Assembly (NCBI GenBank): GCA_022567275.1 | Contig: JADFHH010000001.1 | Coordinates: forward strand, 1 to 27,713 | Direction of reading: 5' to 3' | Length of the DNA: 27,713 nucleotides | Source of the DNA: Pseudomonadota bacterium | Lineage (GTDB): Bacteria > Pseudomonadota > Alphaproteobacteria > Rhizobiales > Methyloligellaceae | Shown: positions 14,118 through 17,135 of the stretch, piece after piece | Numbering within the stretch: position 1 is the stretch's first letter | Layout: each line of letters opens with the position of its first letter | The notes under the pieces: generated by a model | What the model was told of the DNA's origin: nothing | Seen by the model: only the letters and a program-made list of their open reading frames with translations | Database searches by the model: none | Program-made: the position numbers and the translations under genes

Positions 14118-14675
14118 TCAGATTTGCATGATATCCTGTTCTTTGGCTGACAGCGCGTCATCAATCTTTTTGATGACGGCGTCGGTGACTTCCTGAACCT
14201 CGGCGCCGTGGGTGTGTTGCTCATCCTGACCGATCTCACCCTCTTTTTCCTGACGCTTGAGCTGTTCCATACCATCGCGCCGCACATTACGAACCGCAAC
14301 GCGCGACTGTTCGGCATATTTGCCCGCAAGCTTGACCATTTCCCGACGCCGTTCTTCATTCAATTCCGGTATGGGAATGCGCAACACCAGGCCTTCGCCG
14401 ATGGGGTTCAGGCCAAGATCGGCTTCCCGGATCGCCTTGTCGACCGCATCGATGTTCGACTTGTCCCAGACCTGAACGGAAATCATGCGCGCTTCGGGTG
14501 CCGTGATGGTTGCCAGCTGATTCAGAGGCATTGGCGTACCATAGGCGTCCACCGTCACCGGGTCGAGAAGGCTGGCGTTCGCCCGTCCCGTTCTCAAGCT
14601 GCCAAACTCCTGCTGAAGCACATTCAGCGCACCGTTCATACGCCTCTCGATATCCTTGAGATCATACCCGGACAT
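14118..14675 (-). CDS. frr: Ribosome recycling factor (185 aa)
   Basis: [35 protein letters not shown]; strong SD AGGAGG just upstream of ATG 14675 gives the canonical length. Confidence 0.97.
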
Positions 14676-14699
14676 TATCGCCCTCCTTCTGCACGACTC

Positions 14700-14822
14700 G
14701 CATATTATGCTCCAACGCCACATCAAGACAGCGTTCGCCAGCACATTCAATGACCAAATTATGTGTATTGTGCCCTCACGGGCAAGAGCGATTGCCATAG
14801 ATGTGCGTAATGACGTGAGGCC
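14700..14822 (-). pseudogene. pyrH: Probable eroded 3' remnant of UMP kinase pyrH
   Basis: Occupies the usual pyrH slot between tsf and frr. Minus-strand translation [33 protein letters not shown]… resembles the recalled alphaproteobacterial PyrH C-terminus GLxVMDxxAxALARENxIPIIVFSI. Only ~40 codons, compared by eye. Confidence 0.55.
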
Positions 14823-14837
14823 CCGAGGGATGCAGGG

Positions 14838-15764
14838 CTAGTTTCCCGATGCCGCGGCCGCGACCTCGGCGGCAAAATCGTCTGTTTTCTTCTCCACCCC
14901 TTCACCCAGGGCAAAGCGCACAAATCCGGTGATTTTTATCTCACTGCCAATGCCGGATGCCGCTGCCTCTACCGCTTGCTCCACCTTGCTTTCGCCGTCA
15001 ATAACATAGACTTGAGACAGCAGCGCGACTTCCGCATAGAATTTTCGCAAGCGTCCTTCTACCATTTTGCCGATAATGTTTTCCGGCTTGCCTGAGTCCC
15101 GGGCCTGCTCTGTCAGCACGGTACGCTCGCGTTCAATGACGGCTGGATCAATGTCTTCCTTGCTGACAGCCAACGGGTTTGCCGCCGCCACATGCATCGC
15201 AAGCTTGCGGCCGAAATCTTCCAGCGCGTCCGTATCGCCCGATGATTCCAGGGCGACCAGAACGCCGATCCTGCCCAGCCCCGGCGCTACACTATTGTGT
15301 ACATAGCTGGCGACCACACCGTGGGTAACCTGGAGCCGCTGACTCCGGCGCAGCACCATATTCTCCCCGAGTGAACCAACCATATTCTTGATCTGATCGG
15401 CCACGCTGAGATCGCCTTCGCCGTAGGGCATGGCGGAGAGTGCATCCGTGTCTTTTGCCTCCAGGGCGAGCCTGGATATGGTCGAAACCATGTTTTGGAA
15501 CCGAGCGTTGCGGGCAACGAAGTCGGTTTCCGAATTGACCTCGACCAAGGCGCCGGAGGTACCGTCCGTTGCCAGCCCAACAAGCCCTTCGGCGGCAACG
15601 CGGTCCGCTTTTTTCGCGGCGCTGGCGAGGCCCTTGGTCCTGAGCCAATCGACAGAAGCTTCCAGATCGCCCTCATTTTCCATCAGCGCCGTCTTGCAAT
15701 CCATCATCCCCGCGCTGGTCTTGTCGCGCAGTTCCTTCACCATCGATGCGGTAATGGCCGTCAT
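14838..15764 (-). CDS. tsf: Translation elongation factor Ts
   Basis: [55 protein letters not shown]. Confidence 0.98.
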
Positions 15765-15827: not shown

Positions 15828-16988
15828 TCAACCGCTCTTCTTCGCCAGTTCCCTGGCCTGTTTGACCCAGTCATCGCTTTCGATGCGGCCCTTTAATGTA
15901 AGCGCATCATCGATCTCCGCTATATCCGACTTTTTCAACGCGGCGATCTGCCGGTAGTGGAAAATACCATAATCATTGAGTTTTGTTTCCAGCGCAGGGC
16001 CAATACCAGTGAACATCTTGAGGTCATCAGCCTCGCCATCCGGCTTTTTGAGTTTCTCAAATCCGGCAGTCTTCTCTGCCGGAGCGGCGTCTTTCTTCTT
16101 TTCGGCTTCTTTCTCGGCTGGTTTCTTCCTGGCTTCAGGTATTTCTGCGGCGTCCCGTTTCTCCGAAGTTTCTTTCGCCTCGGCCTCGGGTTTGGCTTCC
16201 GGTTCGGCTTTTTCTAAGGCCGTATCATCGCTTTTCACAAGCGCTTCTTCGACGGCCGGTTGCGCCGACTCGCCGATATCGATACCAGCGTCGCTTTGTG
16301 CCCGCTCGATACCGTCGATCGCGGCGCGGGAAATCAAATCGCAATACAGCGTGATGGCGCGGGCCGCGTCATCGTTTCCCGGAATTGGATAGGTGATGTG
16401 ATCGGGATCGCAGTTTGTATCGACAATGGCGATCACCGGTATGCCGAGCTTGCGCGCTTCGGCAATGGCAATGGCTTCCTTGTTGGTGTCGATGACAAAC
16501 AAAACATCGGGCAAGCCGCCAATGTCCTTGATGCCGCCAATGGCATGTTCGATCTTGTCGCGCTCGCGCGTAAGCTGCAGCAGTTCTTTTTTGGTGAGAC
16601 CCTCGTCGGATTCTCTATCCAGCGTTTCTTCAAGCTGCCGCAGACGCTTCAGCGATTTAGAAATTGTCTGCCAGTTGGTCAGCGTTCCGCCCAGCCAGCG
16701 GTGATTGATGTAATGTTGCGCGCATTGCCGCGCGCCTTCAGCGATGGCTTCAGAGGCCTGGCGCTTGGTGCCGACAAACAGCAGGCGGCCGCCTTTGGCG
16801 ATTGTGTCCGATACAATGACCAGCGCCTGATGCAGCAACGGCACCGTCTGCGCCAGATCGATGATATGAATATTGTTCCGCGTGCCAAAGATGTAGGTCC
16901 CCATCTTCGGGTTCCAGCGGTGTTTCTGATGGCCAAAATGTACGCCTGCCTCCAAGAGCTGGCGCATGGTGAAATCCGGCAGTGTCAT
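15828..16988 (-). CDS. rpsB: 30S ribosomal protein S2 with a charged linker and C-terminal helix-hairpin-helix-like extension (386 aa)
   Basis: [44 protein letters not shown]; SD AGGAG ahead of ATG 16988; extra domain [17 protein letters not shown]…[15 protein letters not shown]. Confidence 0.97.
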
Positions 16989-17135
16989 GACTGCGCTCCT
17001 TTTCCGGTTCGACCGCCGCGGATGAGTTGACGCCATGTTGAAGAAACATGTCGCACCGGAGAGTGGCGGTGCCTGAAGTCAGGCCGGCATGAGACCGGCT
17101 TAACAGGCCCACCGCTTGGTATCCGCGTGTGAGAT
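16989..17135 (-). promoter_or_regulatory. rpsB 5' leader, probable S2 autogenous-control RNA structure
   Basis: Complementary pairs CGCGGAU (17127-17121)/AUCCGCG (17023-17017) and UCCGGU (17060-17055)/ACCGGA (17008-17003), plus internal hairpins (CAUGUU…AACAUG; GCCGG…CCGGC), directly upstream of the SD. Confidence 0.7.

Follow-up and report, generated by a model that had tools for sequence, protein, structure and literature searches.

Loss of pyrH from the tsf-frr interval of a bacterial genus, a retained 3' remnant with a predicted frr promoter, and Cmk as candidate UMP kinase

In the canonical rpsB-tsf-pyrH-frr cluster, pyrH encodes a kinase of the amino-acid-kinase fold (TIGR02075 / PF00696) that converts UMP to UDP and that, to our knowledge, is regarded as universal among bacteria and essential to them. 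PyrH also serves as a phylogenomic marker and, since eukaryotes lack it, as an antibacterial target; eukaryotes have a bifunctional UMP/CMP kinase. The frr gene of E. coli possesses a promoter of its own that lies downstream of pyrH. Bacterial Cmk phosphorylates UMP at a low level, and in E. coli its over-expression overcomes the otherwise lethal inactivation of pyrH (PMC3603445), in agreement with an earlier sequence-only reading of the DNA analysed here, which had named cmk as a multicopy suppressor. In the literature that we searched, no free-living bacterium was reported to lack pyrH.

We analysed a 27,713-nt stretch of DNA (the window) from an uncultured marine-sediment genus of Hyphomicrobiales, probably of the family Methyloligellaceae. 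The locus is the same as that of the canonical cluster, and 51 nt in it are homologous to pyrH codons. In contrast to the canonical cluster, pyrH itself is gone in all 11 species of the genus, and no paralogue or relocated copy was detected. We favour, with moderate confidence, the explanation that pyrH was deleted ancestrally and has no homologue elsewhere in these genomes, that its stub was kept as a promoter of frr, and that Cmk most likely supplies the UMP kinase activity. With considerably more confidence we propose that a free-living lineage without PyrH runs all of pyrimidine synthesis, its UMP kinase being either a bifunctional UMP/CMP Cmk or a member of a so far unknown family. Three points are new: the loss of pyrH across a whole genus whose ordinary genomes retain pyrF, pyrG and ndk; the gain of no recognisable replacement; and the retention of the stub as a predicted promoter, with a predicted frr promoter encoded inside the pyrH of relatives. 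That a genus with ordinary genomes lives without PyrH indicates that PyrH is replaceable in nature.

The tsf-frr junction and PyrH across the genus

The coordinates of the features at the locus are collected in Table 1. The sequence-only reading had held that pyrH is missing between tsf and frr while the remaining genes of the cluster are present and intact. Both statements were borne out: the gap measures exactly 162 bp and holds no pyrH ORF, and rpsB, tsf and frr are intact by their NCBIfam scores, as are uppS, cdsA, dxr, rseP and bamA, which are also on the minus strand and all above the NCBIfam cut-offs. The product of rpsB has 402 amino acids, and its C-terminal extension of about 150 aa also matches the C-terminal ends of the models for NuoE, L21 and phasin PhaH, so that it looks like a tail domain common to them.

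Table 1 Features of the rpsB-frr region, in positions of the window
Feature	Coordinates	Strand	Evidence
rpsB (ribosomal protein S2, long C-terminal extension), first gene of the cluster	15828..17036	-	NF008966 552 bits, TIGR01011 326 bits
tsf (elongation factor Ts), intact, 308 aa	14838..15764	-	TIGR00116 311 bits over 1-304
tsf-frr spacer, at the place expected for pyrH (~720 bp)	14676..14837	-	162 bp, no pyrH ORF
Remnant of the pyrH 3' end, 51 nt, codons AIALARxxxIPII(V/G)S	14747..14797	-	MAFFT alignment and nhmmer profile
Predicted -35 hexamer of the frr promoter, TTGCCC	14780..14785	-	Promoter scan; CTTGC invariant in 11/11 genus genomes
Predicted -10 hexamer, CATAAT, 16-nt spacer	14758..14763	-	Promoter scan; invariant in 11/11 genus genomes
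frr ribosome-binding site, AAGGAGG, 6 nt before the ATG	14682..14688	-	Read from the sequence; GGAG(G/T)G in all 11 spacers
frr (ribosome recycling factor), intact, 185 aa	14118..14675	-	TIGR00496 215 bits

The window is a contig (C49) of a metagenome-assembled genome (G000) of 2.39 Mb in 484 contigs, which is 81% complete, so that a gene missing from this genome alone would mean little. The survey of the genus covered 11 species genomes, seven of them 95-99% complete. Ten are metagenome bins, and the closed genome (G001, OZ245829.1, 4.92 Mb) is a record that covers 'chromosome 1' only. PyrH (TIGR02075, E <= 1e-10) had no match in any of the 11 genomes, the closed 4.92-Mb chromosome included. 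The best TIGR02075 match in the window genome scored 26 bits against a cut-off of 243.9 bits and did not represent a full-length PyrH of about 240 aa; it came from a 430-aa open frame that matches AA_kinase over its full length as well and is ProB-like by length. When the PF00696 members of five genus genomes were inspected for a divergent PyrH, only ArgB-, LysC- and ProB-sized frames were found, and G004 alone has one extra member, of 325 aa. Nothing PyrH-like, relocated or even partial, was seen in the 11 genomes, five of which were covered by the amino-acid-kinase survey.

In each of the 11 genus genomes tsf and frr lie side by side, separated by 162-517 bp, compared with tsf-frr distances of 800-1200 bp, pyrH included, in 70+ other loci. 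The 517-bp spacer, in G010 (L016), results from a GC-rich insertion of ~290 bp after the tsf stop and upstream of the remnant, which has no similarity to PyrH. In each of the other genera of the family PyrH scored ~290-330 bits, except for one copy truncated at a contig end. Among 80 public loci with the closest Tsf, all loci from outside the genus that hold both tsf and frr keep the order tsf-pyrH-frr. Across the rest of the order, PyrH is present in 398 of 401 genomes that are at least 95% complete and in 145 of 146 genera, and the exceptions order-wide are this genus and one 220-contig assembly. That assembly (G314) and a further genome, G032, gave no pyrH match; the gap in G032 is probably one of assembly, because G042 of the same genus has pyrH. 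In a related metagenome-assembled genome whose Tsf is 70% identical (L046; CAZHLV010000084.1, 3928-6178), rpsB-tsf is followed by unrelated small ORFs, one of them L33-like, in place of pyrH-frr; a rearrangement has broken the cluster there.

A 1.7-kb stretch is near-identical in marine-sediment metagenomes from at least six studies, and independently assembled contigs from two other marine-sediment studies cross the tsf-frr junction without an indel or joint. These contigs, together with the short spacer in 11/11 genomes, uphold the earlier view that the gap is not an assembly break. The absence of pyrH is not an assembly artefact, and it is an old, genus-wide event rather than one private to a single genome. 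The earlier suggestion that pyrH had been relocated or re-acquired is not supported, as neither a PyrH-like gene nor an extra amino-acid-kinase gene shared across the genus was found, the closed chromosome again included. For annotators, a missing TIGR02075 in these bins is biology and not incompleteness.

Routes from UMP to UDP

The genus retains pyrF (OMP decarboxylase) and ndk as well as pyrG, which encodes the UTP-consuming CTP synthase; UMP is therefore synthesised de novo, and its phosphorylation is still required. Around pyrF, cmk and pyrG, the window genome showed nothing suggestive. In that genome pyrG is split over two contigs (C80 and C315), and in C80 it forms two overlapping frame pieces (HMM positions 2-102 and 101-188), which points to a frameshift or to misassembly close to the end of the contig.

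In every genus genome Adk, Cmk, Gmk and Tmk occur as single copies, which is the sister-genus set of NMP kinases minus PyrH. The P-loop surveys covered ADK, Cytidylate_kin, Cytidylate_kin2, Thymidylate_kin, Guanylate_kin, AAA_17, AAA_18, AAA_33 and dNK, and no extra genus-specific kinase was found in PF00406, PF02223, PF00625, PF13189, PF13207, PF13238, PF13671 or PF01712. A second gene of the ADK family, which would correspond to the eukaryote-type UMP/CMP kinase (PF00406), was likewise absent from the genus genomes, where the search returned one Adk and a weak P-loop match that is Cmk itself. The earlier proposal of an adenylate-kinase-family substitute thus found no support; with this and relocation both unsupported, the non-orthologous route to UDP that the same reading had raised is what is left. 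A Walker-A scan of the ORFs of the window genome returned only AroK, CoaA, CobU, MiaA, Tmk, Cmk, CysC and a zeta-like ATPase that was not recovered genus-wide by the family searches. At a distance of about 2.4 kb from ndk there is a 238-aa P-loop ORF of the AAA_33/zeta-toxin-like kind (G000:C187:1006-1407, minus strand). It was rejected as a genus-wide UMP kinase, since a match of similar size was seen only in G008 and in no other genus genome.

Cmk is therefore the candidate UMP kinase and the most likely provider of the activity, because it is the only known pyrimidine ribonucleotide NMP kinase left in the genus; the assignment is by elimination only and is unproven. Every genus genome has a Cmk (TIGR00017, 176-186 bits). 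The Cmk examined against E. coli 1kdo scored 179.5 bits (cut-off 135.55) and, like the E. coli-type enzyme, is a single canonical Cmk with all CMP-binding residues that were inspected (S/T36, R110, R131, D132, D185, R188). Those that contact cytosine (Ser/Thr36, Arg110, Asp132, Asp185 and Arg188) are unchanged. The genus Cmk differs from the E. coli type by clade-fixed D129E, x148E and E177Q. When 82 environmental genus-type sequences were compared with the 38 nearest other Cmks (E. coli numbering), D129E, two residues before the catalytic R131/D132, was fixed in the genus type (82/82), with D in 36/38 of the others; position 148 was E in 81/82 and T in 32/38; and E177Q was found in 82/82, with D/E in 28/38. 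These fixed changes speak for an adaptation of Cmk. Against one, the cytosine contacts are unchanged, and Glu129 is also present in a mycobacterial Cmk (3r8c); mycobacteria keep PyrH, as far as is known. Relative to Frr, Cmk likewise showed no acceleration on the genus branch (genus (g1)/sister ratio of distances to the outgroup, 1.17 versus 1.10) and no tighter constraint within the genus (ratio 1.71 versus 1.56). In contrast to the multicopy suppression in E. coli, the genus Cmk would carry the whole flux from UMP to UDP from a single chromosomal copy. The genus Cmk and the sister Cmk together form a concrete, testable system for the mode of PyrH replacement.

A serious rival to Cmk is that pyrH is truly lost and that the UMP kinase is an unrecognised, non-homologous enzyme, either of a family not yet described or a promiscuous kinase that belongs to none of the NMP-kinase and amino-acid-kinase families known so far. 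The lack of any base-contact change, rate shift or tighter constraint in the genus Cmk fits this reading, as does the fact that HMM surveys find known families only; against it, no genus-specific kinase was seen in the eight P-loop families or in the amino-acid-kinase family, and a side activity of Cmk on UMP is already known (PMC3603445). We regard such an enzyme as possible, though on the unlikely side, and Cmk remains the provider that we prefer.

A mere translocation of pyrH to an unbinned or unassembled replicon is far less probable. Ten of the genomes are metagenome bins and the closed record is a 'chromosome 1', which leaves room for a further replicon, but pyrH is absent from 11/11 genomes, seven of them 95-99% complete, so that the same replicon would have to be lost systematically, and nothing PyrH-like, even partial, appeared in the amino-acid-kinase survey of five genomes or the PyrH searches of 11. 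Slightly more doubtful still are two explanations that do without a dedicated UMP kinase of the usual kind. If UDP or UTP were imported from a host or partner, a UMP kinase would be unneeded; however, pyrF, pyrG and ndk are all intact, host dependence is unlikely for sediment bacteria with genomes of 2.8-5.4 Mb, and no TLC-type nucleotide transporter was found in the genus, in a search that had no positive control. Alternatively, PPK2 could phosphorylate UMP with polyphosphate. Class III PPK2 enzymes can phosphorylate NMPs, and 10/11 genus genomes have PPK2 genes, with 1-5 copies each. The only copy common to the genus is nevertheless closest to class I (ADP/GDP-type), scoring 346 bits against 3czq/6dzg of S. 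meliloti but only about 100 bits against class III references (e.g. 5lc9, 6an9), so that it does not group with class III; it has orthologues in sister genera that retain PyrH, and no PPK2 was found in the window genome (81% complete). We rejected PPK2 as the UMP kinase because the genus-wide copy is class I-like and shared with the sister genera.

The pyrH remnant and the predicted frr promoter

The minus-strand peptide that the sequence-only reading had quoted as resembling the PyrH C-terminus is present in the gap. A PyrH HMM built from 12 relatives and searched against the six frames of the gap aligned at HMM positions 213-227 ('aaaialardnkipii') with 3.3 bits and an E-value of 0.016, which is weak alone. 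A MAFFT alignment of the 11 spacers showed a single conserved block of 51 nt, listed in Table 1. An nhmmer profile of these 51 columns, built from the 11 genus copies, was searched against 545 kb of loci from other genera, and ~40 loci matched at the same place and on the same strand of intact pyrH with E-values of 5e-8 to 1e-2, the best being 5e-8, 4e-7 and 3e-6. The matched pyrH codons encode A-I-A-L-A-R-D-N-x-I-P-I-I-V-F and lie some 70-110 nt ahead of the stop codon of pyrH. The alignment of the gap to PyrH that had been claimed is thus weak as a single protein sequence and significant as a genus-wide DNA profile. On this homology, the 51-nt block genuinely derives from the 3' end of pyrH; the other ~620 bp of pyrH and the tsf-pyrH spacer are gone. 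That the conserved block is instead a promoter whose translation resembles PyrH by chance has the 3.3-bit single-sequence protein match on its side and is next to incredible against a DNA profile that matches the homologous pyrH codons in ~40 loci, without exception in strand or position, and reaches E-values of 5e-8.

The remnant also carries what appears to be a promoter. A promoter scan of positions 14500-15000 returned only one sigma-70-like site, TTGCCC (14785-14780)-16-CATAAT (14763-14758). The invariant bases of the 51-nt block are CTTGC and CATAAT, so that hexamers, spacing within 16-18 nt and conservation among species all agree with a sigma-70 promoter. Transcription is predicted to start near 14751, which leaves about 75 nt before the frr ATG, and no Rfam family matched in the tsf-frr spacer. 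The evidence for this promoter consists of consensus prediction and conservation, the contigs from RNA runs covering only part of tsf. The Tsf proteins of the genus members are 72-80% identical to that of the window, and at such divergence a neutral remnant should have decayed. The description of the gap as an eroded pyrH scar therefore stands in one half: the remnant is supported by the DNA profile (E 5e-8), but neutral decay is not, as the block is conserved genus-wide and carries the apparent frr promoter. The remnant probably persists as the predicted sigma-70 promoter of frr, and we infer that the stub survived because it carries this element.

The same pattern was seen in intact pyrH genes of relatives, in which the sequence reads …gcN-CTT-GCC-cgN-gac-aac-…-att-cc(c/g)-ATA-ATt-gt…, with the hexamers within the Leu-Ala and Pro-Ile-Ile codons. 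In many Hyphomicrobiales/Rhizobiales (L002-L013, L044-L119), CTTGCC-N17-(G/C)ATAAT stands within the final ~100 nt of intact pyrH, spelled with CTT (Leu) and ATA (Ile), both of them rare codons. Codon usage at these sites was skewed among 62 intact pyrH genes: for Ile in the -10 box, the rare codon ATA is used in 23/42 (55%) versus 7% of the other Ile codons of the same genes, and the Leu codon in the -35 box is CTT in 40/62 (65%) versus a background of 16.5%, with binomial p values of 4e-16 and 4e-17, respectively, that treat related genomes as independent and are thus overstated. These data suggest that a conserved frr promoter is embedded in the pyrH coding sequence of relatives in much of the order. 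As in E. coli, and in the manner of promoters embedded in the coding end of an upstream gene, frr apparently has its own sigma-70 promoter, independent of rpsB-tsf. Unlike that of E. coli, the predicted promoter in this order lies inside pyrH codons, where it would constrain synonymous sites, and it appears to have outlived its host gene.

According to the favoured explanation, the pyrH genes of the family would already have contained the frr promoter among their codons when the loss occurred. pyrH was deleted between tsf and frr in the common ancestor of the genus, and a deletion removing pyrH could have been fixed only if the frr promoter was spared; the ~50 nt of the pyrH 3' end that survive would have been kept through the predicted promoter TTGCCC-16-CATAAT. 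UMP would since have been converted to UDP most likely by Cmk, as judged by elimination. If so, a regulatory element hidden in a coding sequence can outlive its host gene.

In the window genome only, a 226-aa ORF that starts at ATG 14798 runs in frame into frr (14118-14798, minus strand). In most other species of the genus, the frame of the remnant runs into a stop codon before frr. This 'long frr' was rejected as a real extension, being specific to this genome and interrupted by stops in most other species; gene callers may annotate a spurious 226-aa frr here, which is an artefact.
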